NCBI GenBank assembly: GCA_046483865.1
Contig: JAWOCH010000314.1
Coordinates: forward strand, 1-35,306
DNA: 35,306 nt
Direction of reading: 5' to 3'
Source: Candidatus Brocadiia bacterium
Lineage (GTDB): Bacteria; Planctomycetota; Brocadiia; SM23-32
In this document: in pieces, positions 8 through 31,557 of the stretch
Position numbering within the stretch: position 1 is the stretch's first letter
Layout: each line of letters starts with the position of its first letter
Program-made: the position numbers and the translations under genes
The notes under the pieces: generated by a model
The model's input: only the letters and a program-made list of their open reading frames with translations
What the model was told of the DNA's origin: nothing
Databases searched by the model: none

Positions 8-862
8 ATGAGCCCACCCGCGCCGGAACAGATTCCCCCGCCGGAAACCCACAGCCGCGGGCCGACCGTTGTCCACCTGAATCCGTCCAACCCGGCGCGT
101 CATCTGCTCAACGACCTGTTCCGACTTCCCGAGCTTCTGGAGGACATCTCAGGGGGCAGCAGCCGCCTGGCCGGGCGAACGACCTGCTGGCACTGGCGCC
201 CGGACGGCGGGCAGCCCGGCTACCTGGTGCGCCAGTACGTGCACGGCGGCGCGCTCGGACGTCTCTGGGGCGCGTTGTTCACGGACTCCGAACGGATGCA
301 GCGGGAGCTGCGCGTGGTTCGCTACGCCGTGCTGTGCGGCGTGCCAACCCCCCATCCGGTGGCCCTGCGCGTGGAGCGCGTGTGGGGGCCTTTTGTCGAG
401 GGGCATCTGGTCACCGAGTACATCCCGGACGCGTTGAACCTGTTGGAGCTGTGCAAAGGCGACCAGGAAGGTTGGCCGCCTCAGCGGAGACACGCCGCGG
501 CCCATGCCGTCGCCGGCGCAGTAGCCCGGATGCACGACGCAGGCATAGACCACGCCGATCTGAACCTGAAGAACATCCTCGTGCAGCCCGGCGATGACGG
601 GCTGCGCACGCACATCATTGACCTGGACAAGGCGGTCGTGCGCCGCCCGCTGCCCCTGGGGCGTCGGATGGCCAACCTGGTGCGCCTCGACAGGTCCGTG
701 CTCAAGTGGGCTGCCAGCCGGCAGTCAGTCACCCTCAGCGACCGCTTGCGTGTAGTGCGCAGCTACCTGGGACACTATCCCGACTGGCGGAGCCAGTGGC
801 GACAGATTCTGCGCACCCACGCAACGCGCCACCTGCGCCACGTGCTCACGCGGCAGGCTTGA
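8..862 (+). CDS. Lipopolysaccharide kinase (Kdo/WaaP) family protein, KdkA-like
   Basis: 284-aa ORF with kinase catalytic-loop-like motifs IDHADLNLKNILV and IIDLDKA, typical of the Kdo/WaaP LPS kinase family. It lies upstream of kdsD-kdsC. The ATG is 7 nt from the window edge with no in-frame stop before it, so the 5' end could be truncated. Confidence 0.7.
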   Translation: MSPPAPEQIPPPETHSRGPTVVHLNPSNPARHLLNDLFRLPELLEDISGGSSRLAGRTTCWHWRPDGGQPGYLVRQYVHGGALGRLWGALFTDSERMQRELRVVRYAVLCGVPTPHPVALRVERVWGPFVEGHLVTEYIPDALNLLELCKGDQEGWPPQRRHAAAHAVAGAVARMHDAGIDHADLNLKNILVQPGDDGLRTHIIDLDKAVVRRPLPLGRRMANLVRLDRSVLKWAASRQSVTLSDRLRVVRSYLGHYPDWRSQWRQILRTHATRHLRHVLTRQA

Positions 863-935
863 CCACCACCTGCCTGCGCGCTACCATCCCCGTGGAGCGT
901 AGCCACCATGCACTCCTGCGGGAGGGCGCCGAGAG

Positions 936-1274
936 ATGGAGAGGGTCAACGCGAACGAGCTGGAGTACCGCAACACGGTCAGCGGGCCGAAATACCTGTT
1001 CCGAGGACCGCGGATAGACTGGGGGCTGATCCGCTTCCTGCCTGGCGAGGAGCTGGGCGCCCACTACCATAACGAGGTCGAGGAGACGTTCTACTTCCAG
1101 ACCGGTTCGGGTGTGTTCGTGGCCGACGGGCTGGAGTATGACATCAGCCCCGGCGATGCCTTCCGCGTCGACCCGGGAGAGGTCCACAACGTGCTCAACA
1201 CCGGCGACGGCCCCCTCGACGGTGTGTTCATCAAGCACACCTACCAGCCGGACGACAAGGTGGGCACCGGCTGA
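936..1274 (+). CDS. Cupin-domain protein
   Basis: 112-aa ORF with cupin motifs GAHYHNEVEETFYF and GDAFRVDPGEVHNVLNTG. GGGAGGG RBS lies about 9 nt upstream of the ATG. Confidence 0.75.
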   Translation: MERVNANELEYRNTVSGPKYLFRGPRIDWGLIRFLPGEELGAHYHNEVEETFYFQTGSGVFVADGLEYDISPGDAFRVDPGEVHNVLNTGDGPLDGVFIKHTYQPDDKVGTG

Positions 1275-1372
1275 CCCGCCCACGGGCAGACCGCGCGGCG
1301 GGGACGCCGCCTCTGCCGGGTCGGAGAGGGGAAGCCGGACGACGGGTAAGGGCGCCCCTTGACGAGCCGCTT

Positions 1373-1402
1373 TTGCAACTGAGCTGCCGGGCTGGCTATA
1401 AT
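1373..1402 (+). promoter_or_regulatory. Sigma70-type promoter candidate for kdsD-kdsC (TTGCAA-N18-TATAAT)
   Basis: TTGCAA at 1373-1378, an 18-nt spacer, then a perfect TATAAT at 1397-1402, about 50 nt upstream of the kdsD ATG. Confidence 0.45.
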
Positions 1403-1450
1403 CCCTGAGGGTCGGCTACACGCACACCTCTTGCCCACGGACCCGAGCAG

Positions 1451-2434
1451 ATGGACTACCTGGAAGAGGGCCTGGAGATCATCCGCCAGGAGATCAGTGC
1501 CCTCGAGGACATGAAGGACCAGCTCGGCCCGGAGTTCGCGCAGGCGGTCGAGTTGATCTTTGGATGCGAAGGCCGTGTGATCGTCACCGGCGTGGGCAAG
1601 GCCGGACTGGTCGGCCGCAAAGTCAGCGCCACCCTGGCCAGCACAGGCACGCCTTCCTACTGGATGCACGCCGTCGAGGCTCGCCACGGTGATCTCGGCC
1701 GGGTGCAGCCTGGCGATGTCGTCCTTGCGCTGAGCAACAGCGGCGAGACCGAGGTCGTCCAACTCCTGCCGGCGCTGAAGAAGCTGAACGTGCCGATCAT
1801 CGCCATCACGGGAGACCCCACTTCCGCCCTGGCGCAGCGCAGCGACATCGTGCTTCACATCGGTCGCGTCCGCGAGGCGTGCCCTCTTGGTCTGGCGCCG
1901 TCGTGCAGCACAACGGCCATGCTGGTGATGGGAGATGCACTTGCGCTTACCATCTTCCGCATCCGCAACTGGTCGCCCGAAGATTACGCCTTCTACCACC
2001 CCGGCGGCGAACTGGGTCGCAAACTCATCACCGTCAGAGAGATCATCAAGACCGAGCACGGCAATCCGGTCTGCGCGCGCGGCGCGACGGTCCGCGAGGC
2101 GCTCGGGGTGATCGGCGGCCGGGGCAGCTATGGCGCAGTCAACGTCGTGGACGGCGACGGACAGCTGGTGGGTTATTTCACCGACGGCGATTTCCGTCGG
2201 CTCATGCAGGACGGCGATGGCCAACTGCTGGACCGCCCCATCGGCGATGTGATGACCGCCGAGCCGAAGACTATCAGCATAGACAGCCTCGCCGCCGAGG
2301 CATACCGCGTGCTCCGAGACTGCCGCGTGGACAACCTGCCCGTGGTGGACCAGGACGGGCGGCCGGTCGGGATCCTGGACGTGCAGGACTGGCTGGACCT
2401 GGAGCGCGGCATGGACACGCCACCCGAGAAATGA
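1451..2434 (+). CDS. kdsD: Arabinose-5-phosphate isomerase (KpsF/GutQ/KdsD family; SIS domain plus tandem CBS domains)
   Basis: 327 aa. SIS motif VIVTGVGKAGLVGRKVSATLASTGTPS and SNSGETEV, and a C-terminal CBS pair (NVVDGDGQLVGYFTDGDFRR; LPVVDQDGRPVGILDVQD). Adjacent to kdsC. Confidence 0.85.
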   Translation: MDYLEEGLEIIRQEISALEDMKDQLGPEFAQAVELIFGCEGRVIVTGVGKAGLVGRKVSATLASTGTPSYWMHAVEARHGDLGRVQPGDVVLALSNSGETEVVQLLPALKKLNVPIIAITGDPTSALAQRSDIVLHIGRVREACPLGLAPSCSTTAMLVMGDALALTIFRIRNWSPEDYAFYHPGGELGRKLITVREIIKTEHGNPVCARGATVREALGVIGGRGSYGAVNVVDGDGQLVGYFTDGDFRRLMQDGDGQLLDRPIGDVMTAEPKTISIDSLAAEAYRVLRDCRVDNLPVVDQDGRPVGILDVQDWLDLERGMDTPPEK

Positions 2435-2444
2435 CAGCCAACCC

Positions 2445-3002
2445 ATGCGCCTGCTGCACGAAGAAGCCCGAGAGCGCGCCCGTAGCGTCAGACTCGTCAT
2501 CATGGACGTGGACGGCGTGCTGACCGACGGCCGCGTCCTCTACTCCGCCGACCGGGAAGGCGTGCTGTTCAACGTGCACGATGGCACGGGTATCAAGTAC
2601 CTGCACCGCTGCGGCATCCAGACGGCGCTGGTCACCGGCCGGAACATCCAGGCCGTGCGCCGCCGCGCTGAGTCGCTCGGAATCCCGCATCTGGTCCAGG
2701 GCGCCAGGGTGAAGATGGACGCCTATGAGCAGGTGCTCGCAGATGCCCAAATGCCCGACGAAGCCGCGGCCTACGTGGGCGACGACCTGACCGACATCCC
2801 GGTGATGCGGCGGGTTGGGCTGGCGATTGCCGTGCCCGACGCCGTCAGCGAAGTCCTGGAGCGCGTGCACGCCGTCACCGAGAAACGCGGTGGGCACGGC
2901 GCGGTGCGCGAGGCGGCGGAGTTCATCCTGAAAGAGCAAGGCAAGTGGCAAGGCATCCTTCAGCGATACTTCGAACCGGATGAAGGGAGTGCGCAGACGT
3001 GA
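2445..3002 (+). CDS. kdsC: 3-deoxy-D-manno-octulosonate-8-phosphate phosphatase (HAD superfamily, KdsC family)
   Basis: 185 aa. HAD motif I is VIMDVDGVLTDG. TGRN and VGDDLTDIPVM motifs are also present. Immediately downstream of kdsD. Confidence 0.8.
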   Translation: MRLLHEEARERARSVRLVIMDVDGVLTDGRVLYSADREGVLFNVHDGTGIKYLHRCGIQTALVTGRNIQAVRRRAESLGIPHLVQGARVKMDAYEQVLADAQMPDEAAAYVGDDLTDIPVMRRVGLAIAVPDAVSEVLERVHAVTEKRGGHGAVREAAEFILKEQGKWQGILQRYFEPDEGSAQT

Positions 3003-3823
3003 GCACAGAGCTGGAAGCAGACCTGGACGGCATGGTGGTGGCGCTTACGGGCGGGGGAGGCGTCTTGTGCGGCACTATGGCCCGTGCCCTTGCGCGGCGC
3101 GGAGCGGCCGTTGCCATACTCGACGTGCTGGAGGAGGCGGCGCAGGAAGTGGCCGACGACATTCGCGAGGACGGAGGCACCGCCCTGCCCGTCGTCTGCA
3201 ACGTGCTGGAGAAGGAGCAGATACGCCGCGCCGTCCAGACGGTCGAGGAGCAGCTCGGACCGACCGACGCGCTGATCAACGGTGCGGGGGGGAACCGGGC
3301 CGAAGCCACCACCACGCCCGACCTGCCGTTCTTCGACCTGCCCCAGGACGCCGTGCGATGGGTGTTCGAGCTGAACTTCCTGGGCACCTTTCTGTCCTGC
3401 CAGGTTTTCGCCCGGCGCATGGTCGAGCGGGAGGCCGGGAACATCATCAACATATCGAGCATGTGCGCCTTCCGCCCACTGACCCGCGTTTCGGCCTACT
3501 CGGCGGCCAAAGGCGCCGTGAGCAATTTCACGCAGTGGCTTGCGGTGCATCTGAACCAAAACTACGGGCCCGGCATTCGCGTCAACGCCATCGCCCCGGG
3601 TTTCTTCCTCACCGAACAGAATCGCTACCTGCTGACTGATGTCGAAACCGGTGAGTTGACGCCACGGGGGCAGACCATCCGGGACCACACTCCGATGGGA
3701 CGGTTCGGTGACCCGGAGGACCTGATCGGCACGCTGCTGTGGCTGCTGAGCGAGTCCTCCGATTTCGTCAACGGCATTGTGGTGCCGGTGGACGGCGGCT
3801 TCAGCGCCTTCAGCGGAGTGTGA
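2999..3823 (+). CDS. SDR-family oxidoreductase (UxuB/YjmF-like short-chain dehydrogenase)
   Basis: 274 aa. Rossmann motif TGGGGVLCGTMARALARRGAAVAILD, plus NGAGGN and a YSAAK catalytic Tyr-Lys. The GTG start overlaps the kdsC stop (GTGA). Confidence 0.75.
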   Translation: MSTELEADLDGMVVALTGGGGVLCGTMARALARRGAAVAILDVLEEAAQEVADDIREDGGTALPVVCNVLEKEQIRRAVQTVEEQLGPTDALINGAGGNRAEATTTPDLPFFDLPQDAVRWVFELNFLGTFLSCQVFARRMVEREAGNIINISSMCAFRPLTRVSAYSAAKGAVSNFTQWLAVHLNQNYGPGIRVNAIAPGFFLTEQNRYLLTDVETGELTPRGQTIRDHTPMGRFGDPEDLIGTLLWLLSESSDFVNGIVVPVDGGFSAFSGV

Positions 3824-5982: not shown

Positions 5983-8154
5983 TTACTCCGGTTCCAACTC
6001 GGCGCCCATAACGGTCACCGTCAGTCCTTCCAGCAGGTCGGGCTCGGAGATGCGGGCGACCGACACCCCCTGCCGCGTGCGCACGCTCAGCACCGGTATG
6101 CGCATCTCCTTCCAATCGGCCAGCGGCAGCAGCGGCACGTCCAGCGTGCCGCGCAGCGGGCGGAGCGTCAACTCCCCCTCCAGGCGGTTCAGCGACAGGC
6201 CCGCCGCGGCCATCGTCATGCCCAGCACCGTCGCCCCCCGCGGGTAGAAAGCCAGGTAGTTGCCCTCGGTCGTGTCGTAATAGAGCGACGCGCCCCAGCC
6301 GCTGCCGGTGGCCGCCTGGTAGTCCCAGTAGCGCCCCACGTTGTCCAGCATGTCCACTCCCAGGTAGGCGGCCACGTAGTCGCGCCACATGTTCTGGCTG
6401 AACCAGACGGTCCGGTCCGAGCCGCTGGAGTGGCGGCATCCGTAGGGAGTCATCGTCCGGCGGGCAGCGGTCTCGATGTCTCGCGCGAAGCGGTTCAGTT
6501 TCCATCGGGGCATCTTGAGCCCGGCCAGGAACAGGTAGAGCAGCCCGTTGGCCGTGTAGATGGAGTAGTCGTCCCAGCCTTCCAGCTCCTCCCCTTCCAG
6601 GGGCTCGCCGGTCCAGGGGTCGGTGAGGCCTTCGGTGCTCTTGTCCAGAACCACGGCGTAGTGGTCATCCAGCCAGGCGCCCTCTTCGACCGCTTTGACG
6701 CCCTTGGAGGCGGCGGCCCGCCAGCGCTCGGCCTGGGAGCCCTTGGCGCCGCAGTGCTGCTCCAGCTCCGCCAGGGCCCACAGGGCGGCCTGGGCCTTAA
6801 CGGCCAGGTAGGTCTGCTCCCGCCCGAACTGCACCGCCGGGCTGGCGTCGTCTATCGTGTTGGCCGTGCCCAGGTCGGGCACACCGTTGCCGCTGGTGTC
6901 GGCCTTCACCAGGAACTCGCCCAGCCGCCGGCACAGGTCCAGATGCTCCTTCGCCTTCTCCGTCTGCCCGGTGAAAGCAGTCCACGCGGCCAGCATCAGC
7001 AGGTAGTTGGCCGTTTCCTCCACTTCCATGTGGTGGGAGTAGACCTGGTGCCCGACCACGTGGTCTCCGCCCATGTCGTGGCACAGGAAGGCCGTCTTGT
7101 TGCCCTCCGCCCCGACCAGCTCGGCGGCGTCCACCTCGAACTCCGCCCACTCATCCAGCAGCATGCCCAGCAGTTCCGGCCACAGGGCGAAATACAGCAG
7201 CGCGTCGTTGTACTCCACGTCTATGGTCGAGTGGTAGTAGCAGAGCCCCTCCCAGACGCTGAACCAGTCGGAGCCGTCCTGGCGCACGGCCCACCAGGAG
7301 TCCGCAAGGAAGGAATGGAACGCCAGTGCCGACAGGTTTCCCCCCGCGCTGCCCAGAGTCCAGCTTCCGAACGCAACGTCCAGCATGTCGCATCGCTTCA
7401 GGATCTTCTTCCTGTGCTCGGCGGCCCAGGCGACCATTGCCTTGCGGGACTCGAACGCTTCCACGTACTTCAGCGTAGCGGGCTGATCGAAGACCTGGAG
7501 CACGGGTTCAGCTATCCAGCAGGACCAGATCAGCCGCATCCGCGTCTCGGGTTCCTCCGCCAGGTTGAACGCCAGCCGCAACTCCGCCGGGCCGACCCGG
7601 TCGCCTGACTCCGCTTCCACCCAGGTCGCAACCGTCACCGACTGGGGCGGCAAGTCGTGACGCGCGGGCGCATTGCTGGTGAACCGATAGCGAAAGCCGC
7701 CCTCGCCCCCGTCGAACTCCACGCCCTCCCCCCGCAGGCCGAATACCAGCTCCCCCTGTTCCAGAGGCGAATCGGGCTCGATGTGCCGGAACTCGCCCAG
7801 CCGCCGCACGGTCAGGTCTACGTAGTAGAACGGCGCCGTCGAGATGCGCACATTACGGGGGTAGAACGGCGCCCGGATCTCCAGGACGACCTCCAGGCCC
7901 AGAGCAGGATGCACGCCGCGGTAGCTTATGCCGGTCAGGGCAGCAAACTGCTCCACGAACGGCAGCGGCGTGGCCTCGGAGCTGAACGGCAGCGTCCACG
8001 TCTGGCCCTCGGGCGTGCGCACGCCGGCGACCAGCTCCAGGGGCTGCTCCAGGAAACGTCCCGTTGCATTCTGGTAGACCTTGCGGTCGTAAGGATGGAA
8101 GATCAGGTTGAAGCGTCCGCCAAGCGTAGCGGCGGCATCGGCTATCGGCTGCAT
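5983..8154 (-). CDS. Glycoside hydrolase-like protein, GH52-like (beta-xylosidase family) by motif resemblance
   Basis: Long ORF. Segments WFSVWEGLCYYHSTIDVEYND, AFLCHDMGGDH, HMEVEETANYLLMLAAW and GNGVPDLGTANTIDDASP parallel, from my memory, the conserved blocks of GH52 enzymes. Start taken at ATG 8154 (MQPIADAA...), which is preceded by a GGGAGGG RBS. The ORF-track start at 8295 lacks this support. Confidence 0.55.
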   Translation of the reverse strand: MQPIADAAATLGGRFNLIFHPYDRKVYQNATGRFLEQPLELVAGVRTPEGQTWTLPFSSEATPLPFVEQFAALTGISYRGVHPALGLEVVLEIRAPFYPRNVRISTAPFYYVDLTVRRLGEFRHIEPDSPLEQGELVFGLRGEGVEFDGGEGGFRYRFTSNAPARHDLPPQSVTVATWVEAESGDRVGPAELRLAFNLAEEPETRMRLIWSCWIAEPVLQVFDQPATLKYVEAFESRKAMVAWAAEHRKKILKRCDMLDVAFGSWTLGSAGGNLSALAFHSFLADSWWAVRQDGSDWFSVWEGLCYYHSTIDVEYNDALLYFALWPELLGMLLDEWAEFEVDAAELVGAEGNKTAFLCHDMGGDHVVGHQVYSHHMEVEETANYLLMLAAWTAFTGQTEKAKEHLDLCRRLGEFLVKADTSGNGVPDLGTANTIDDASPAVQFGREQTYLAVKAQAALWALAELEQHCGAKGSQAERWRAAASKGVKAVEEGAWLDDHYAVVLDKSTEGLTDPWTGEPLEGEELEGWDDYSIYTANGLLYLFLAGLKMPRWKLNRFARDIETAARRTMTPYGCRHSSGSDRTVWFSQNMWRDYVAAYLGVDMLDNVGRYWDYQAATGSGWGASLYYDTTEGNYLAFYPRGATVLGMTMAAAGLSLNRLEGELTLRPLRGTLDVPLLPLADWKEMRIPVLSVRTRQGVSVARISEPDLLEGLTVTVMGAELEPE

Positions 8155-24460: not shown

Positions 24461-24913
24461 TCAGTCCGCCCGGACGGCCACCTCCGCCTCGACCGTGACG
24501 CTCGTCTCCCCGTCCAGCGATCTGGTAATCAGGCAGGCGCTCTCCGCCTTCCCGATGGCTTCGCGCGCCGCCTCCACCTGCTCCTCGGCGGCGACGGTGA
24601 TGTCGGCCTGCACGGTGAAGTCCGAGAAGGACATGCCCCCGCTGCCCATCTGGAGCGTCCCTTCGCACTCCGACTGGTAGCTCTTCAGCTCCACGCCGGC
24701 CCGGTCGGCGTAGTAGAGGAACGTCAACATGATGCAGGTCTCCAGCGCCCCTACCAGCATATCCTCCGGGCTCCAGACGCCCTCGTGACCTTTGAACTCC
24801 GGCGGCGTGGCGACCTCCAGGTCGGGCTTGCCCTCAGAGGACAAGACGCCCCGGCGCTCCCGTTCCCACCGGACGGACGTGCAATACCTGTGTTGTGCCT
24901 TCCCCTGCGCCAT
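24461..24913 (-). CDS. OsmC/Ohr-family peroxiredoxin-like protein
   Basis: OsmC-like pattern: PPEFKGHEGVWSPEDMLVGALETCIMLTF...AESACLITRSL. Start chosen at ATG 24913 (MAQGKAQ...), downstream of the neighbouring gene's stop. Confidence 0.7.
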   Translation of the reverse strand: MAQGKAQHRYCTSVRWERERRGVLSSEGKPDLEVATPPEFKGHEGVWSPEDMLVGALETCIMLTFLYYADRAGVELKSYQSECEGTLQMGSGGMSFSDFTVQADITVAAEEQVEAAREAIGKAESACLITRSLDGETSVTVEAEVAVRAD

Positions 24914-24942
24914 CGGTTGTCCCCTTGCCTGCGCCGCGCTCG

Positions 24943-25470
24943 TTACCCCATGCCCAGCGAACTCTGGTCGCCGACGATCAACGCCCATTCCTTCCACAGA
25001 AACCATGCGGCGTTCTCGTTCAGGTACTCCAGCGTGTTCTCCAGCATCTCGTAGTGCTGGTTCTCCTCCCTGGACAGCCGCTCGAACAGGCGCCGGGTGT
25101 CCTCGTCCGCTGCGTCTTCGGCAGCCTTGACGTAGAGATTGTAGCTCTCCGTCTCCATCTCCATTGCCTGCTGAACGGCGTCCTTCTCGTCGCTGGTGAC
25201 CGCCCCCTGCTCGTCCGTCTGTTCGGCGGCCTCGGTGAACAAGGTGCGGATCTCGTCCCTGGGCATCGGCATCTGGTCAACGTCCACGCCGACGCCTTCG
25301 GCCAGATCCTTCACCACTCTCAGGTGGCGCCGCTCGTCGGCAGCAAAAGACTTGAACATCCTCTGCCCCGCCTCGGTCGCGCACATGCTGGCGAGCGTGG
25401 TGTAGAAATCAGCTCCGTCAATCTCCAGCTTCCGGGCCTTCTGGACCGCTTCCCTCAGTGCGTCGCGCAT
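24943..25470 (-). CDS. Ferritin-like diiron protein (rubrerythrin/erythrin-like, no rubredoxin domain)
   Basis: Two E...ExxH diiron motifs (LEIDGADFY...ADERRH and MEMETESYNLY...REENQH). Start at ATG 25470 lies 9 nt after GGGAGG. Confidence 0.7.
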   Translation of the reverse strand: MRDALREAVQKARKLEIDGADFYTTLASMCATEAGQRMFKSFAADERRHLRVVKDLAEGVGVDVDQMPMPRDEIRTLFTEAAEQTDEQGAVTSDEKDAVQQAMEMETESYNLYVKAAEDAADEDTRRLFERLSREENQHYEMLENTLEYLNENAAWFLWKEWALIVGDQSSLGMG

Positions 25471-25624: not shown

Positions 25625-25700
25625 GGGGACGTAGCTCAGCTGGGAGAGCGCGGCACTCGCACTGCCGAGGTCGAGGGTTCGAATCCCTTCGTCTCCACCA
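25625..25700 (+). tRNA. tRNA-Ala (anticodon CGC)
   Basis: 76-nt cloverleaf folded by hand. Acceptor GGGGACG/CGTCTCC carries the G3:U70 alanine identity pair. D arm GCTC-AGCTGGGA-GAGC. Anticodon arm CGGCA-CTCGCAC-TGCCG. T arm GAGGG-TTCGAAT-CCCTT. CCA is encoded. Confidence 0.95.
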
Positions 25701-25853
25701 CCTTCCCAAGCCCTGCGCCCCCTGGCGGAAGTGTCCGTCACCTCCCCGGAGTCCGGATAGACGGTCTTGGTCACCCTGTTGGGGTGTTTGGCGGCGCCGT
25801 AGTAGTAGCTGGTGTCCTGGTGATTCGAGCCGTCTTCCCACGCCTGGATGGAT

Positions 25854-27227
25854 TCACTCCAACCGCCCCCGCCGGAGCGGATCAATCAGTGTGAAGGTGA
25901 TGTCACCGTCCGTCCCCGAAGCTCCGCCGTTGTCAGTGAGATCCCCTCCTATGCTGTATATGACCATGCCCGTCGGCGTACTGCGGTACGAAACGGGTCC
26001 GCCGCTGAAAGGGTCTTGGGGTTCGGCGTCCAGGTACGCGGGCACTAGTTCAGCAACGGACTCAGGCCAACTCCCGTGTCGAAGCCGGTACCTCTCGGCA
26101 GCCACCGCTGCTGCGCCAACTCTCAGCCGCGCTACCACATGCACTCGAGTTGTCACAATTCCGGCAAGTTCCGCCTGCATCCAGGGGGGGCGCCAGTCAC
26201 GGGAAAGCTCGGTAGCCCAAGTGAGCTGCTCCCGCAACGGACGCTTCAACACGCGCAACGCCTCCGCAATAGCCCGAATCTCCTTCGCAAGCCGCATCTT
26301 CCCCACACCGGGAAGCCTTCTCTCCCACCATACACGACGCGCCCACCTGCTCTCCACTGGTGAGGAAAGTGCTTTGGTAAGCTGTTCTATGCGCTCTTGC
26401 GAGCTGGATAGTCCGTGCGGGCCAGCCCAATCTCTGGCGATGCTCCAGAGCGTACTTCGGGGCGAAGTCCAGGCCTCCGCTATCGCTAGGCAGCGTGCCA
26501 GAGCACTAAGCACTTGCGGCTCAAGCTCGGCACGGCCCAACGTTTCCTCCAACAGGGCGAAAGCATCGAACACGCTATTTGTGGTGCCCAGTACGTATGT
26601 GGCCGGCGCCCCTGCGTAAGCCTGACCACAGTTGAGCAGTGCGATAACGCCTTCACCCGTAATGCTCTGCTCAGGCGACGCTTGCTGCGCCAATTCCAGC
26701 CAGCGAATCCGGTAGAAGAGGGGGCCAGCTCCGCGGACAAGGGTCTCCACGAGTGGCCGTACCTCCTCGCCGGCGAATACGTTTTCGCTCCCGTCAGACG
26801 AACCAACACACTCCCCGTAGAACGGCTGGAGCAACAGCCGTAGCACACGATGCTTTTGCCGGTACTCCAGTAGCGCGTGAGCCGCGTCAACCGGAATTGC
26901 ACGCCCAACAGCGCGGAGCCCGGCGGTTTCTGGCACTCTCAGTTCTGATCCGCTCTCTCCCTCCAGCCACGCCATCGCAGCCGCGGCTGCCAGGCGCCTG
27001 CCGGCGTCCACCTCAGTTCCGATGGGCCTCACAGTCCGCCCGTGCTTGGGAGTGAGACGCTCGATCCGCTCACGCGCCTCCTGGAGACGAGAGTCTCCTA
27101 CGTAGCCTAGAACCACTAAGAACACGAGGAGGCATAGAGCGAGGACCGCCAGGACGTAACCGATCCCCGGCACAGCGTAGAGCAGCAGCCGCCGAGTCGC
27201 CCATTTCTGCGTCTTCCTGTCTCCCAC
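25854..27227 (-). CDS. Hypothetical membrane-anchored protein (457 aa) with pseudopilin GspG-like C-terminal motif; candidate Rhs-tip immunity/partner protein
   Basis: GTG start lies 8 nt after a GGAGGA that directly abuts the TAG stop of the Rhs tip (TAGGAGGAAGGGGCTGTG). There is an N-terminal TM helix (LLLYAVPGIGYVLAVLALCLLVFLVVLGYV). The C-terminus reads WPESVAELVPAYLDAEPQDPFSGGPVSYRSTPTGMVIYSIGGDLTDNGG. Confidence 0.65.
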   Translation of the reverse strand: MGDRKTQKWATRRLLLYAVPGIGYVLAVLALCLLVFLVVLGYVGDSRLQEARERIERLTPKHGRTVRPIGTEVDAGRRLAAAAAMAWLEGESGSELRVPETAGLRAVGRAIPVDAAHALLEYRQKHRVLRLLLQPFYGECVGSSDGSENVFAGEEVRPLVETLVRGAGPLFYRIRWLELAQQASPEQSITGEGVIALLNCGQAYAGAPATYVLGTTNSVFDAFALLEETLGRAELEPQVLSALARCLAIAEAWTSPRSTLWSIARDWAGPHGLSSSQERIEQLTKALSSPVESRWARRVWWERRLPGVGKMRLAKEIRAIAEALRVLKRPLREQLTWATELSRDWRPPWMQAELAGIVTTRVHVVARLRVGAAAVAAERYRLRHGSWPESVAELVPAYLDAEPQDPFSGGPVSYRSTPTGMVIYSIGGDLTDNGGASGTDGDITFTLIDPLRRGRLE

Positions 27228-27239
27228 AGCCCCTTCCTC

Positions 27240-27932
27240 CTAGGGATCACAGTCTAGCGGATTCCCCATCATTATCCCCTTAGTGGCGCCTTTGGCAGGC
27301 ATGTTATTATTCTTGCACTCAGCCTCGATGACCCCCACGTCATGCTCTTGCGCTCCAGCACCGATGTTCAAGTTGGTACAACCGGTGAAGGGCCCTGGTA
27401 TTGTTATACTGCTGTCCGGTCTGAAGTTCTTCCAGCCTATCAGTTTCTTCTTTCTGGCCACAGAATTGTTGGTCCACGCCTGAAACGGTCTGCCATCGCA
27501 GCAGCACTGCCAACGAAATGCCCCCTCACCCGCGAACACGCATACAGCCACACCGTGTATGGCCATGCCCAATCCAACGCTTTCAACCCCCACTGCGTGC
27601 AGTCGCCACTGGATATTCGCCCAGATGAGGCGGCAGCCCCTGCTCTTACAGGCTGCCAAGCCCAAGGGGTCTCGGCTGAAACTTGGACGCCCTTTCACGT
27701 ACTGGTACACATTCACGCCATCGGCGTATCGCGCGGGATCGCCGGAGACAAAGCGGCCAACGGTCACTGAGTACTGACGATTGCGGTAGTACATGAGGTC
27801 GGATTCGAGATCGAGGCGTCTCGCGGTGAAGGCGTAGGGGTTCTCTACGTCCGAGACTCCGTCCGAGTCGTCGGAGCCGTCGCCGTCCAGGACGGTGGCG
27901 GCGCCATACGCGTCATGCCGATAGCGTTCCAC
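27240..27932 (-). CDS. RHS-repeat-associated core plus novel C-terminal toxin-like domain (5'-truncated orphan Rhs tip)
   Basis: Rhs core hallmarks: YRHDAYG, NPYAFTARRLDLESDLMYYRNRQY, GRFVSGDP and NVYQYVKGRPSFSRDPLGL. A 138-aa Cys-rich tail follows (27243-27656). The same frame stays open upstream of the GTG as far as 28034 (..DRDGDLADTNEKVWYHSNTLHSVYALTDNSESVV..). No Rhs N-terminal body is present. Confidence 0.8.
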   Translation of the reverse strand: MERYRHDAYGAATVLDGDGSDDSDGVSDVENPYAFTARRLDLESDLMYYRNRQYSVTVGRFVSGDPARYADGVNVYQYVKGRPSFSRDPLGLAACKSRGCRLIWANIQWRLHAVGVESVGLGMAIHGVAVCVFAGEGAFRWQCCCDGRPFQAWTNNSVARKKKLIGWKNFRPDSSITIPGPFTGCTNLNIGAGAQEHDVGVIEAECKNNNMPAKGATKGIMMGNPLDCDP

Positions 27933-27981
27933 GACCGACTCCGAGTTGTCGGTGAGGGCGTATACCGAGTGCAGCGTGTTG

Positions 27982-28551
27982 CTATGATACCATACTTTCT
28001 CGTTCGTGTCGGCCAGATCCCCGTCGCGATCGTGTCAAGAGTGTTGTGTAAAAGGGGGCTGGAGGGCTTCGGCGCGCTGTGCGGCCGTAGCGCTGCTGTT
28101 GTAGCTTCCGCCAGACCAGGTAGGTGGCCCTCTCCAGGCTCCGAGCACTGGGGAAGATGCCCACCTTGCGGATCTTTTTGCTCAGCTCTCCTATGAAGCG
28201 TTCGATGGGGTTGGTGGTCTTCAGCCGCGCCCGTAACTGCGTCGGGGCGTTCAGGTAGGTGAGGGTGTCCTCAAACTCGTAGCTGAATCGCCTGACGGCC
28301 TCCGGCTCGAGCTGCTCCCACCTGCGGGCCCACAGCTTCAGTCGCCGCCGCGCCTGATACGGGGTGCGCAGGCCCTCGTAGATGGCCGCCGCTTCCGAGA
28401 GGATCGCCCCCCGCCGCGAGCGGTCCCGCAGGTGATCGGCGATGTTCTGGACCTTGTGGAAGATGCAGCGCTGTCTGGGCACCCGCGGCTGGACCATCCA
28501 GAGGGCCGCCAGAAGGCCCCCATCCCCATCGGTGACGATCGTCTCCAGCAC
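27982..28551 (-). pseudogene. IS256-family (Mutator-type) transposase, N-terminally truncated remnant
   Basis: TDGDGGLLAAL...QRCIFHKVQNI...TTNPIERFIGELSKKIRKVGIFPS matches the C-terminal half of IS256-family transposases. Upstream homology (..DYLTGRARYVLE) is interrupted by an in-frame TAG and runs into the TolC gene's 3' end by about 28646. About 200 N-terminal residues are missing. The last roughly 18 codons of the ORF-track ORF overlap Rhs-derived sequence. Confidence 0.75.
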
Positions 28552-28646
28552 ATAGCGGGCACGGCCGGTCAGATAATCCTACAGTCTCTGTTGACATTCG
28601 GCGCGGACGGTGCGAAGCTCGACCATCGGGGCGCCTGCCTCAGTCT

Positions 28647-30293
28647 TCAGTTGGCCTCCGGCCGGATCGGTGACCACCTGACGCGGCTCTCGCCCAAGAG
28701 CGCCCCGACGGCAAACGCCAGGTCCACCTGTGCTATCTGGTACTCCGCGACGGCCCGGATCTCGGCCGACTGCGCGTCGGCCAGTCGCGTTTGGGCCTCC
28801 AGCACCTCCGTCGAGGTCCGCAGGCCCAGCTCGAACTGCCGCTCTTCAGCGTCCAGCGTCCTGGCAGCCAGAATCGTGCCCTGCCGGCTGGCCAGTATCC
28901 GCTGCCAGGTGGCGTCGAGCTGGTCTGCGGCGTCGGCCACCTCCTGCTGGATCTGGGCGCTTCGCCGGGCCTGACTGGCCAGACGCTGCAGACGCGTGAA
29001 CACGGCCCGCCGCAGGCGGCTTCTGGCCAGCCGGTTGCCCAGCGGCACCGACAGGCTCAGGCCAACCTGATGGCTGTCGAACTCGCAGTCGCACATCAGG
29101 TCGAACGCGTCGCCGGGCGTATCCCCCAGCCCGGAGATGCCGTAGGTGTAATCAACAGCCACCAGTGGCAGTGTCTGGTTGCGCGCGAACGCCTCCGCGC
29201 TCTGGTCGGCGGCAATCTGCAGCTCCAGCTCCAGCATCTCCATCCGGTTGGTCAGGGCGAACTCCGTAAGCCGTTCGACATCCAGATGGTAGCGGACGGG
29301 ATCGGGCTCGGTGACCGGGATGACCTGCGTCGTTCCCCCGATCGAGAGGCCGGGCCGGTTCAGCACGCGTTTCAGTTCGCGCTCCCGGTCGCGCACGCGG
29401 TTATCGGCAATGATGATGCCCTCCAGGCGCTCGGCCACGCCGGCCTCGGCGCGGATCACCTCCACCTCCGCCGCCTCTCCGACATCGGCGCGTCTGCGGG
29501 CCCGGCCAAGTTGCGCGACAGCCAGGTCGTACTCGTTCTTGCGCACCTCCAGTTCGCGCCGTGCCGCATACAGCCGCCAGTAGACCCGTTCGACCGCAGC
29601 CAGCACGCGTATGACCTCGAGCTTCGTGCGGGCTTCGACCTGCTGAGTCTCGTAGCGGGCGATGCGGATCAGGTGCGTGTTCGTGCGGACGCCGGCGTCG
29701 CGCAGCAGAGGCTGGCTGATGGAGGCGGTCATGCTCGAGCCGTACGACGGGTTCAGCGTGGAGAAAGGGTCGCTGGTCTCCAGGCGATTGGCCGCGAGGT
29801 CGAAGACCACGTCGCCCCCCGTGCGCAACGGGATCCGCACCCCCAGGTCTCCCCTGTAGGACTTGCTTTCGGCGGCGCTCAGTTCGGTGGCCGTCGGCTG
29901 CTCGACTCGTGCGTAGGCTGCGTTGCCGAACAGGGCGGGCTCGAATCCAGCCTCGGCCTCGTTGACCGACTCGGCGGCGATCGCGGGGGCGCGGAGTTGG
30001 ACGTCCAGGTCCAGGTTGTGTCGTAACGCGCCAGCGCGGCACTCTTCCAGGGCAAGTTCCAGTCGCTCAGGCGGCTCCCCCGGGCCGGGGCGCGGCTCCG
30101 CTGGTTCCGGCGCGTCCGGTTCAGCCATGTCCTGCAGATCCACGGCGTCAATCTCCCGCAGCCGGCTCTCAGGGACCCGGAGCGTCATGAATCGGTCTTC
30201 ACTGAAGTAGCGGCGGCACCCGAGAGAGAGGCCAACGGCGAGAATGGGCAGCAGGACTGCAGCCGGGATGCGCTGCCAGGAGGATCTACTCAT
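28647..30293 (-). CDS. TolC-family outer-membrane efflux lipoprotein
   Basis: Lipobox LSLGC follows a signal peptide. The body has the long coiled-coil/beta-barrel repeat character typical of TolC/NodT proteins. ATG 30293 overlaps the permease stop by 8 nt; TTG 30308 is the ORF-track alternative. Confidence 0.8.
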   Translation of the reverse strand: MSRSSWQRIPAAVLLPILAVGLSLGCRRYFSEDRFMTLRVPESRLREIDAVDLQDMAEPDAPEPAEPRPGPGEPPERLELALEECRAGALRHNLDLDVQLRAPAIAAESVNEAEAGFEPALFGNAAYARVEQPTATELSAAESKSYRGDLGVRIPLRTGGDVVFDLAANRLETSDPFSTLNPSYGSSMTASISQPLLRDAGVRTNTHLIRIARYETQQVEARTKLEVIRVLAAVERVYWRLYAARRELEVRKNEYDLAVAQLGRARRRADVGEAAEVEVIRAEAGVAERLEGIIIADNRVRDRERELKRVLNRPGLSIGGTTQVIPVTEPDPVRYHLDVERLTEFALTNRMEMLELELQIAADQSAEAFARNQTLPLVAVDYTYGISGLGDTPGDAFDLMCDCEFDSHQVGLSLSVPLGNRLARSRLRRAVFTRLQRLASQARRSAQIQQEVADAADQLDATWQRILASRQGTILAARTLDAEERQFELGLRTSTEVLEAQTRLADAQSAEIRAVAEYQIAQVDLAFAVGALLGESRVRWSPIRPEAN

Positions 30294-31557
30294 GCCTGAG
30301 GGCCTCAATGGGGTCGAGCCGAGCTGCCTTGATGGCGGGGAACATCCCGAAGAAGATTCCCACGAATGCGGCGAAGCTGAACGAGACTGCGATGGCCCAG
30401 AGCGGGATGCTGGCCTTGTCCAGTTGGGCGTTCGGAATCTGAGCGATGGCCGAGGTCAGGAGCTGAGCGGCCACCACCCCGCCGGCACCCCCGACGAGGC
30501 ACAGTACGACGGCCTCGACCAGGAACTGCAGCAGGACGGCCGACGGACGGGCGCCCACGGCTTTGCGCAGGCCGATCTCACGTGTGCGTTCGGCCACCGA
30601 CACAAGCATGATGTTCATTATGCCGACGCCCCCGACCAGCAGGGAGATGCCCACAATGCCACCTGCGACGATGGTGATGGCGAGGGCCACCTTGTTGAAG
30701 TCAGCAAGGTGCTTCGCCATGGTCTCGACGCCGAAGTCGTTTGGTTCTCCAGGTTCCAGTCCCCGCGCACGGCGCAGGAAGAAGGTCAACTCAGCCTGGG
30801 CCTCGTCCGCCAGTTCGGTCTTCCGGCTGGCAGCGATGACCCACGTACCACCCCAGCGCTCGTTCGCTCGCCACGCCGTCGTGAAGGGAATGAACACCTC
30901 CAGCTTCTCCCGCCCGGTACCCGGGAAGGTCTCGGGCTCGTCCGGCTCTTCGATGACGCCGACGATGCGATGGGAGCGCCTGCCGAGGCGGAGGTACTCG
31001 CCGACGCAGTCACGGTCCAGGCGCAGCTCGTCGCGCAGCTTGGAGTCCACCACGCACACGGGGCGGGCCTGGGCGATGTCTATGGCCGTGAACGGCCGCC
31101 CTGTCTCCACCGGCCGGTTCTCGATGTCGTGCCAGGCCGGATCTATGCCAAGGACCTGGACGTCTGCGACCGAACGCTGACCCGACTGCACTGACCGCGG
31201 CAGACCGGTCACGCGGGTGATCTTGTCAATGGAGGGGCAATGCTGCAGCACGCCTTCCAGCAAACCGGGGGTGAAGCGGAGCTGCTGCCAGGGGTACTCG
31301 CTGTCGTCCCGACCTTCGGGCACTTCGGGATAGGCGTACAGCTTGTTCGTGCCGAAGGCCTCAAACTGGGACAGCACGTTCTGTCGCAGGCCCGTGAGCA
31401 CGGCGATGACAGCAGTGACGGAGGCGACTCCAATGAAGATGCCGATGGTGGTCAGCATGGCCCGGGCCTTGTTGCTCCAGATCTGTGCCAGCGCCAGCCA
31501 GACGCTCAACCAGAGCAGGCGCAGGAAAACGATCGGGAATCGGAGCAGACGGATCAC
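30286..31557 (-). CDS. ABC transporter permease, FtsX/MacB-type
   Basis: N-terminal NKARAMLTTIGIFIGVASV, a large periplasmic domain, and a C-terminal FtsX motif VAERTREIGLRKAVGAR. The GTG start overlaps the ATPase stop (GTGA) and lies 5-6 nt after GGGAGCG. The ORF-track start at 31992 is a spurious extension. Confidence 0.8.
   Translation of the reverse strand: MIRLLRFPIVFLRLLWLSVWLALAQIWSNKARAMLTTIGIFIGVASVTAVIAVLTGLRQNVLSQFEAFGTNKLYAYPEVPEGRDDSEYPWQQLRFTPGLLEGVLQHCPSIDKITRVTGLPRSVQSGQRSVADVQVLGIDPAWHDIENRPVETGRPFTAIDIAQARPVCVVDSKLRDELRLDRDCVGEYLRLGRRSHRIVGVIEEPDEPETFPGTGREKLEVFIPFTTAWRANERWGGTWVIAASRKTELADEAQAELTFFLRRARGLEPGEPNDFGVETMAKHLADFNKVALAITIVAGGIVGISLLVGGVGIMNIMLVSVAERTREIGLRKAVGARPSAVLLQFLVEAVVLCLVGGAGGVVAAQLLTSAIAQIPNAQLDKASIPLWAIAVSFSFAAFVGIFFGMFPAIKAARLDPIEALRHE

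Follow-up and report, generated by a model that had tools for sequence, protein, structure and literature searches.

The contig analyzed here, 35,306 nucleotides from a Candidatus Brocadiia bacterium (GenBank assembly GCA_046483865.1, JAWOCH010000314.1), was taken in its entirety, and we refer to this whole stretch as the window. Between a tRNA-Ala gene and the 3' end of an efflux operon, it carries an islet of about 3 kb that we read, with a probability of roughly 70%, as an orphan Rhs toxin/immunity module that came from a foreign, lower-GC source and was left at a rearrangement junction. Followed along the minus strand, the islet runs from a copy of an IS256-family insertion sequence (IS) through an Rhs fragment and a gene for a 457-amino acid protein to a scrap of YD-repeat sequence adjoining tRNA-Ala(CGC). 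Its parts are the following:

28026–28636, minus strand: IS256-family copy, dead as judged from its sequence, with the right terminus intact, an internal deletion, a TGG-to-TAG change, and the left end gone.
27657–28025, minus strand: 3' end of an Rhs core, about 123 amino acids, 5'-truncated, matching TIGR03696 and ending in PSFSRDPLGL.
27243–27656, minus strand: cysteine-rich C-terminal domain of 138 amino acids after DPLGL (from translation), the presumed released toxin.
27228–27242, minus strand: junction of the Rhs stop and the partner start, TAG GAGGAAGGGGCT GTG, with a 12-nucleotide gap and a Shine-Dalgarno sequence over the stop.
25854–27227, minus strand: gene for the 457-amino acid partner, a candidate immunity protein, starting with GTG.
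25737–25860, minus strand: scrap of an Rhs YD-repeat shell, about 38 amino acids from mid-shell, outside any intact open reading frame (ORF).

The window is the longest contig, C84, in a metagenome-assembled genome (MAG) of 3.41 Mb and 457 contigs, with 67.3% GC, 88% completeness, and 3.5% contamination. Across 25701–28646, GC falls to 62.0% against the genome mean of 67.3%, which lies in the lowest 2% among 3-kb windows of the genome, and in the toxin-coding part (27240–27656) it falls to 55.6%, in the lowest 0.26% among genome windows of equal size. An earlier reading by a model that saw the sequence alone (hereafter the sequence-only reading) had claimed that about 3 kb differ in composition from the flanks, and both sliding GC and GC at third codon positions (GC3) agree with it. 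GC3 is 0.645 in the toxin part, 0.67 in the gene for the 457-amino acid protein, 0.76 in the Rhs core, and 0.88 in the IS piece, with the native genes pyrF, OsmC, rubrerythrin, and TolC at 0.84 to 0.88. Because the GC3 of the IS is native-like, the toxin and its partner, and not the IS, are the source of the low-GC signal.

The Rhs frame (27240–28034, minus strand) matches TIGR03696 with an E value of 1.6e-16 and 60.6 bits against a cut-off of 32.5 bits (62.9 bits in the genome search), and its PSFSRDPLGL conforms to the PxxxxDPxGL autoproteolysis motif of the core/tip boundary, where cleavage is predicted. The frame opens with three codons of the IS terminus immediately following a TGA. Across 27717–28027, the window core is 83% to 89% identical in DNA to cores on four other contigs of the same genome (C428, C237, C247, and C47), and this identity extends past neither limit. 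Since the frame begins in the IS terminus after the TGA and homology to the paralogs ends at 28027, the IS marks the exact point at which the Rhs gene was truncated. No RHS_repeat match indicative of a YD-repeat shell was found upstream in the Rhs frame; starting at the IS end without such repeats, the frame is an orphan fragment and not a full Rhs protein. The 5'-truncated Rhs C-terminal tip of the sequence-only reading is thus upheld.

That reading had also proposed searching the genome for relatives of the Rhs core, and the search returned 8 further core domains (TIGR03696) and several pieces of YD shell (RHS_repeat), mostly at contig ends. The cores on C428, C237, C247, and C47 are 83% to 92% identical to the window core and to one another, and their tips are all different; the window tip is unique within the genome, the core being common to four paralogous modules. 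All four have non-YD sequence just upstream of the core. In C428:3-2010, C247:1884-3543, C237, and C47, Rhs homology begins within about 60 bp of a single core point. Two of these orphan modules lie directly behind ankyrin-repeat genes, and ankyrin repeats are a recognized immunity class in polymorphic toxin loci (PMC3482391). The multiple orphan cores with different tips indicate that orphan tip modules are stockpiled in this genome, normally in arrays, with the module in the window standing alone. The nearest Rhs cores were found in MAGs labeled Candidatus Brocadiia, Brocadiaceae, Phycisphaerae, or Planctomycetota, which points to an uncultured planctomycete as the host. In the spacer beside the tRNA, where a short peptide had been suspected of being another Rhs fragment, 25737–25851 shares 89.6% DNA identity with C226:5743-5857, a stretch of another contig in this genome that sits within a 410-amino acid RHS_repeat ORF (Pfam, 1.7e-16). 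The spacer and C226 peptides align as SIQAWEDGSNHQDTSYYYGAAKHPNRVTKTVYPDSGEVT and TIQAWEDDTNHQDTSYYYGAAKHPGKVTKTVYPDSGEVT, and on this alignment the spacer is a true Rhs fragment.

The 138-amino acid domain contains nine cysteines and a W-x-C-C-C motif. Four members of the domain are known, every one at an Rhs C-terminus, and in their alignment seven cysteines are invariant, including those of W-x-C-C-C, together with two Trp, two Gly, and one each of Val, Pro, Gly, Gln, and Asp. Its rarity is apparent from every search made with it. Among 1.84 billion cluster representatives, phmmer recovered only 2 true relatives (P0009 and P0012), each the C-terminus of an Rhs ORF cut off by the start of its contig; three further hits (P0008, P0010, and P0011) are repetitive and were discounted as matching HYR, Ig, or repeat proteins by composition. 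A profile search of 30 close relatives added one distant member, from genome G008, which ends a 677-amino acid ORF of YD repeats and Rhs core, and no further member was found in 400 other genomes of the phylum. A word-indexed protein search with the toxin region returned the query alone, a scan of metagenome contigs by toxin motifs gave 599 pattern matches of which 0 were confirmed, and 80 Rhs loci from GTDB species representatives matched via the core only, the tip or partner being found in none. No Pfam model matched the domain even at E<=5, NCBIfam returned only the Rhs core for the tip ORF and nothing for the tip, and a profile search of PDB sequences with the domain gave no match. An AlphaFold model of the domain consists mainly of beta-hairpins and one helix, and in Foldseek comparisons of this model with PDB and BFVD the best E values were 0.17 to 0.3 at template modeling scores below 0.3, without a match.

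The G008 array that holds the distant relative shows another mobile element interrupting an Rhs array. A REP-associated tyrosine transposase-like (RAYT-like) gene, scoring 66.7 bits and below its cut-off, separates two Rhs ORFs there (7206–7991, minus strand, of locus L221, G008:C99:30000-42000).

The gene for the 457-amino acid protein follows the Rhs frame closely, as the sequence-only reading had it in describing a tightly coupled downstream ORF. The Shine-Dalgarno sequence GGAGGAAGGGG, read from the DNA, overlaps the Rhs TAG, and by its sequence, the partner gene is intact, has its own ribosome-binding site, and is translationally coupled to the Rhs frame. Scanning for promoters and terminators yielded two weak sigma-70-like sites where 0.8 were expected, which is no evidence of a promoter. 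The protein begins with basic residues followed by a single strongly hydrophobic membrane helix at about residues 13 to 49 (hydropathy), and is predicted to continue with an all-helical middle and a C-terminal part made of a long helix and beta strands. It matches no Pfam or NCBIfam model. Its C-terminal domain of about 100 amino acids is weakly GspG-like (AAERYRLRHGSWPE...DPFSGGPVSY...IYSIGGDLTDNGG), scoring 13.7 bits against the 21-bit cut-off of T2SSG (PF08334), and sub-threshold T2SSG matches occur in 8 of 16 family members, with a best E value of 0.0014. A prepilin cleavage/methylation motif of the G-F-x-x-x-E type is absent from its N-terminus. With a score under the cut-off and no prepilin motif, assignment as a GspG pseudopilin was rejected: the protein resembles the PF08334 family without belonging to it.

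The same domain of about 100 amino acids defines a wider family, with 1 to 11 copies per genome in 25 of the 30 genomes from this bacterial family. Its members combine an N-terminal membrane anchor, a helical region, and the C-terminal domain, and the family is unannotated and lineage-expanded. Loci of the family include G000:C301:3524-5434 and G009:C15:137860-142923, and some members stand in tandem arrays of up to four.

What ties this family to the toxin-type domain is gene order. A homolog of the 457-amino acid protein is the next gene at all 4 of the 4 loci that encode the domain, the window included. The other three are:

Locus L132: partner of 430 amino acids, 30-nucleotide gap after the Rhs ORF, BLASTP E value of 2e-15 over residues 97–425 of the window protein.
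Locus L133: partner of 495 amino acids, 11-nucleotide overlap with the Rhs ORF, BLASTP E value of 1e-18 against the window protein.
Locus L221 (G008:C99): partner of about 486 amino acids, gap of about 50 nucleotides after the Rhs ORF, BLASTP E value of 8e-16 against the window protein.

Partners at all four loci share one architecture, with a single N-terminal membrane helix after basic residues. In a neighborhood test in which the positive controls were detected, no Rhs core or toxin was found near other members of the family, either at relatives' loci (0 of 21, about 5 kb upstream) or at metagenome loci (0 of 31). As 0 of 52 other family loci are linked to Rhs, the linkage is not a by-product of the family's abundance, and since family members account for no more than a few genes per thousand, chance cannot explain three independent immediate adjacencies. 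The partner is therefore tied specifically to this toxin domain. That the toxin always occurs with a partner, while the partner family mostly occurs without the toxin, is consistent with recruitment of an immunity protein out of a broader periplasmic family. The partner is predicted to have its N-terminus inside and most of the chain outside, and this topology, along with the invariant cysteines of the toxin, makes action in the periplasm or envelope the most economical interpretation, and the toxin probably acts in the periplasm.

The same protein could instead be an envelope protein that exports, anchors, or presents Rhs cargo, perhaps as a pseudopilin-like adaptor of a type II secretion system (T2SS) or pilus, a role that we consider unlikely. 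The weak T2SSG matches point in this direction, as do the abundance of the family, which is usually unlinked to Rhs, the presence of members next to RND/OEP and LolA-like genes, the true prepilin-type gene just downstream in G008, and the fact that type VI secretion system (T6SS) genes were not found in the genome. Immunity genes, however, canonically occupy the place immediately after the variable tip, which is where the partner stands. Known adaptors and chaperones of T6SS Rhs loci sit upstream. The partner also has no prepilin motif, co-varies with the toxin domain and not with the Rhs shell, and has stayed intact although the orphan module no longer has anything to export, all of which argues against such a role.

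How a toxin of this kind would be delivered was approached through the secretion genes of the same genome. The sequence-only reading had pointed to a T6SS VgrG/PAAR or another system as a possible secretion partner, and in the 88%-complete genome TssC (PF05943), PAAR (PF05488), and VgrG (TIGR03361) gave 0 matches each, while the positive controls were detected. RHS-repeat polymorphic toxins are found in planctomycetes without a T6SS (PMC3482391). Judging from this gene complement, the Rhs system here is probably T6SS-independent.

The IS at the other end of the module marks its truncation point. The IS ORF (27982–28551, minus strand) scores 91.5 bits against positions 189–334 of 338 of NF033543, short of the 150-bit cut-off, and also matches Pfam Transposase_mut (2.3e-20). 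These partial matches, with the deletion and the TAG, confirm the decayed IS256-family transposase that had been noticed on the minus strand. Since sequences 97% to 98% identical to 28026–28636 stand at the ends of seven other contigs (C77, C175, C317, C71, C394, C385, and C224), the element is multi-copy. Its right terminus, ...CTTGACACGATCGC, is the same in copies with at least five distinct flanks, which places the right end of the IS at window base 28026. Fuller copies on C385 and C224 have a leader of at least about 75 nucleotides ahead of the ATG, followed by MVELRTVRAECQQRLWDYLTGRARYVLKRLLEAFMEH...; the window copy begins about 6 nucleotides before the ATG and so is without the left end and leader present in C385, C224, and C394. 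Internally, about codon 27 is joined to about codon 190, a deletion shared with C394, which has kept its left end, and a TGG codon has become the nonsense codon TAG. The window copy has neither a full-length DDE transposase above the cut-off nor both terminal ends and, on this sequence, is immobile.

The deleted form of the element is represented by window positions 28254–28636 and C394:2167-2548, and the full-length form by C385:78-167 and C224:29-118. Its occurrence in at least 2 copies (the window and C394) suggests a non-autonomous derivative that has spread or been duplicated in the genome.

The islet is bordered by two features:

25625–25700, plus strand: tRNA-Ala(CGC), intact with its CCA end (ARAGORN; Rfam RF00005, 67.4 bits), the left border of the islet.
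28647–30308, minus strand: gene for a TolC-like outer-membrane efflux protein (Pfam OEP, 6.4e-37), the last gene of a MacB-type operon and the native right flank.

Comparison within the genus rests on the one available genome, G001, and its homology to the window stops at both borders of the islet. On the left, homology at 95% identity ends at 25702, 2 bp past the tRNA, and on the right, DNA homology ends at 28636, the edge of the truncated IS. In G001, the TolC ortholog (88% amino acid identity) ends a contig, the next gene there encoding a 1039-amino acid M1-peptidase-like protein for which tblastn found no match in the window's 88%-complete genome. The block of pyrF, zinc-ribbon, rubrerythrin, and tRNA-Ala(CGC) genes lies on a different contig from TolC and has other neighbors; of the contigs in the window's genome, C77 matches the G001 sequence past tRNA-Ala best (76% identity). 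Orthologs of the TolC-like gene were found in relatives, and four other genera have kept the MacB-TolC operon, but neither the tRNA nor rubrerythrin adjoins it there. Near the tRNA-Ala(CGC) genes of these four genera, matches to Rhs, the IS, and the partner were not found. The sequence-only reading had called for an empty-site comparison of this junction. No empty site, with the tRNA abutting the far flank, occurs in G001 or the four other genera, because the flanks stand on separate G001 contigs with other neighbors and the four genera show no such adjacency. The islet is a synteny breakpoint whose edges are the tRNA end and the broken IS.

Both flanks of G001 show further differences from the window. 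The 1039-amino acid protein encoded after TolC carries a HEIGHQYWGE (M1 peptidase-like) motif (155–3274, minus strand, of locus L033, G001:C172). On the other flank, the OsmC-like gene that lies between the zinc-ribbon gene and rubrerythrin in the window (24461–25006) is absent from the congener (locus L048, G001:C448), where about 1.15 kb of additional sequence separates rubrerythrin from tRNA-Ala, indicating that the native left flank is itself indel-prone.

A breakpoint of this kind raises the question of whether the contig could be an assembly chimera, formed through an IS copy or the Rhs core repeat, such that the tRNA-Ala and TolC sides are not true neighbors. We judge this improbable, even though the MAG is fragmented into 457 contigs, the IS segment closely resembles the copies at seven other contig ends, and the two flanks stand on separate contigs with other neighbors in the congener. 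The window IS has private features, namely a left truncation flush with the TolC 3' flank, the TAG codon, and a divergence of 2% to 3%, and the sequence at each of its two junctions is unique. Moreover, one stretch of single-copy sequence runs from the tip through the partner and the YD scrap to the tRNA, so the identity of the module does not depend on how this question is settled. A chimera would concern the junction only and could be compatible with an orphan toxin/immunity module.

Least probable of all is a classical genomic island, site-specifically integrated at the 3' end of tRNA-Ala and since decayed: the islet does directly adjoin the tRNA, has low GC and GC3, and begins where congener homology ends 2 bp past the tRNA, but no tyrosine integrase (PF00589) was matched on this contig, though 8 matches occur elsewhere in the genome, no repeat of the tRNA 3' end was found within the window at up to 3 mismatches, no flanking direct repeats were found around the islet, the far border is a truncated IS, and the congener lacks the tRNA-TolC adjacency. 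With integrase on the contig, att-like repeat, and empty site all not found, the tRNA-targeted integrative island was rejected. A synteny breakpoint with no integrase on the contig favors rearrangement and deletion associated with the IS and Rhs sequences over site-specific integration. On these points, the sequence-only reading was right that a direct repeat of the tRNA 3' end is missing at the distal border and that an old or IS-mediated origin is to be preferred to an integrase-mediated one, given also that the Rhs frame is cut at the IS end; its suggestion that the tRNA had served as an integration hot spot finds no support, the islet being a rearrangement junction.

An orphan Rhs toxin/immunity module left at such a junction would have the following history. 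An ancestral Rhs gene may have carried a horizontally acquired, lower-GC C-terminal toxin domain with its cognate downstream gene. An IS256-family element would then have inserted into the 3' Rhs core, after which everything upstream was presumably lost, including the YD shell, the IS left end, and the former neighbor of the TolC operon, and a deletion on the opposite side would have left only the 38-amino acid shell scrap beside tRNA-Ala. Without its shell, the toxin fragment would be neither packaged nor exported and should not be deliverable on its own. The partner, as the putative immunity protein, would be anchored in the inner membrane by its single N-terminal helix, and most of it would extend into the periplasm and there neutralize a disulfide-rich toxin acting in the cell envelope; most likely it would still protect against kin that deploy the toxin on a full-length Rhs protein. 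The conserved core, 83% to 92% identical elsewhere in the genome, could also allow recombination to place the tip on a full-length rhs gene, as has been shown for orphan tips in Salmonella (PMC3967940).

Several observations weigh against this interpretation. The partner is 3 to 4 times the size of typical Rhs immunity proteins, and its family is mostly not linked to toxins, with one member following an OEP-RND efflux operon and another a LolA-like gene. The structure model of the partner is poor (pLDDT 44), and that of the toxin is moderately confident (pLDDT 75.5 for the best model, 52 to 64 for the other four) and without a fold match, so that its toxic activity is putative; the cysteines of the domain may bind metal instead of forming disulfides. 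The incompleteness of the MAG (88% complete, 457 contigs) limits the negative result for the T6SS, and the contig crosses two repeat families, the IS and the Rhs core, which leaves a small probability of a chimeric join within 28026–28636.

A more specific proposal, for which we put the odds slightly below even, is that the W-x-C-C-C domain and its single-pass, GspG-like partner constitute an undescribed toxin/immunity family, carried by T6SS-independent Rhs proteins of Planctomycetota, in which the toxin would act in the periplasm or envelope and the unusually large immunity protein would derive from periplasmic, membrane-anchored proteins of a lineage-expanded family. Orphan Rhs modules are themselves well known (PMC3150448, PMC3482391), and the architecture described here is ordinary; it is the two protein families that are undescribed. 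One is a rare toxin-type domain, with two relatives among 1.84 billion protein representatives and one more among 460 planctomycete genomes, that has an invariant seven-cysteine pattern and no recognizable fold. The other supplies a strictly linked, atypically large, membrane-anchored partner that offers a handle on Rhs toxins in bacteria without a T6SS, and its linkage is the first functional clue to an unannotated family found in most genomes of the lineage. The locus is also a clean case of an IS truncating an Rhs module and stranding it at a synteny break beside a tRNA, and it cautions that a low-GC patch next to a tRNA need not be an island made by an integrase.

Parts of the islet can be compared with known systems. 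The IS resembles the IS256 family and its non-autonomous deletion derivatives in that the C-terminal half of its transposase fits IS256 models, it is multi-copy with a defined right terminus, and its internal deletion recurs in C394; unlike such derivatives, the window copy has lost its left end and acquired a nonsense codon, and would be neither autonomous nor mobilizable.

For the presumed site of action, the relevant comparison is with effectors of the T6SS that act in the periplasm, such as amidases and lipases, whose immunity proteins are exported or membrane-anchored (Tsi/Tli-type). The window pair would resemble these in having a toxin that acts outside the cytoplasm and an immunity protein that faces the periplasm, the whole basis for placing the toxin there being its cysteine pattern and the topology of its partner. 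It differs from them in showing no sequence or fold relation and in its delivery route.

Polymorphic toxins of Planctomycetes and the Planctomycetes-Verrucomicrobia-Chlamydiae (PVC) group use export of the Sec or T2SS type and carry many alternative C-terminal domains (Zhang et al. 2012, PMC3482391). The genome studied here is like them in having RHS-repeat toxins with no T6SS genes found and in also containing ankyrin-repeat (Imm-ank) genes. It is unlike them in that the W-x-C-C-C domain and the GspG-like partner match no Pfam model, toxin and immunity families included.

Among the closest known elements are the orphan rhs-CT/rhsI modules of Enterobacteria (Poole et al. 2011, PMC3150448; Koskiniemi et al. 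2014, PMC3967940; Starsta et al. 2020, PMC7043789). The window module differs from these in being solitary, and not arrayed behind a main rhs gene, in having been truncated by an IS, in belonging to a genome where no T6SS was found, and in having a toxin domain and a partner that fall into no described family, the latter a single-pass membrane protein of 457 amino acids in place of a small cytoplasmic one. Like the enterobacterial orphans, it is a 5'-truncated rhs gene that retains its 3' core and PxxxxDPxGL motif and ends in a variable tip, with a second gene closely coupled to it on the downstream side. Its GC is likewise below that of its host, and its core is homologous to other rhs copies, so that recombination could redeploy the tip.

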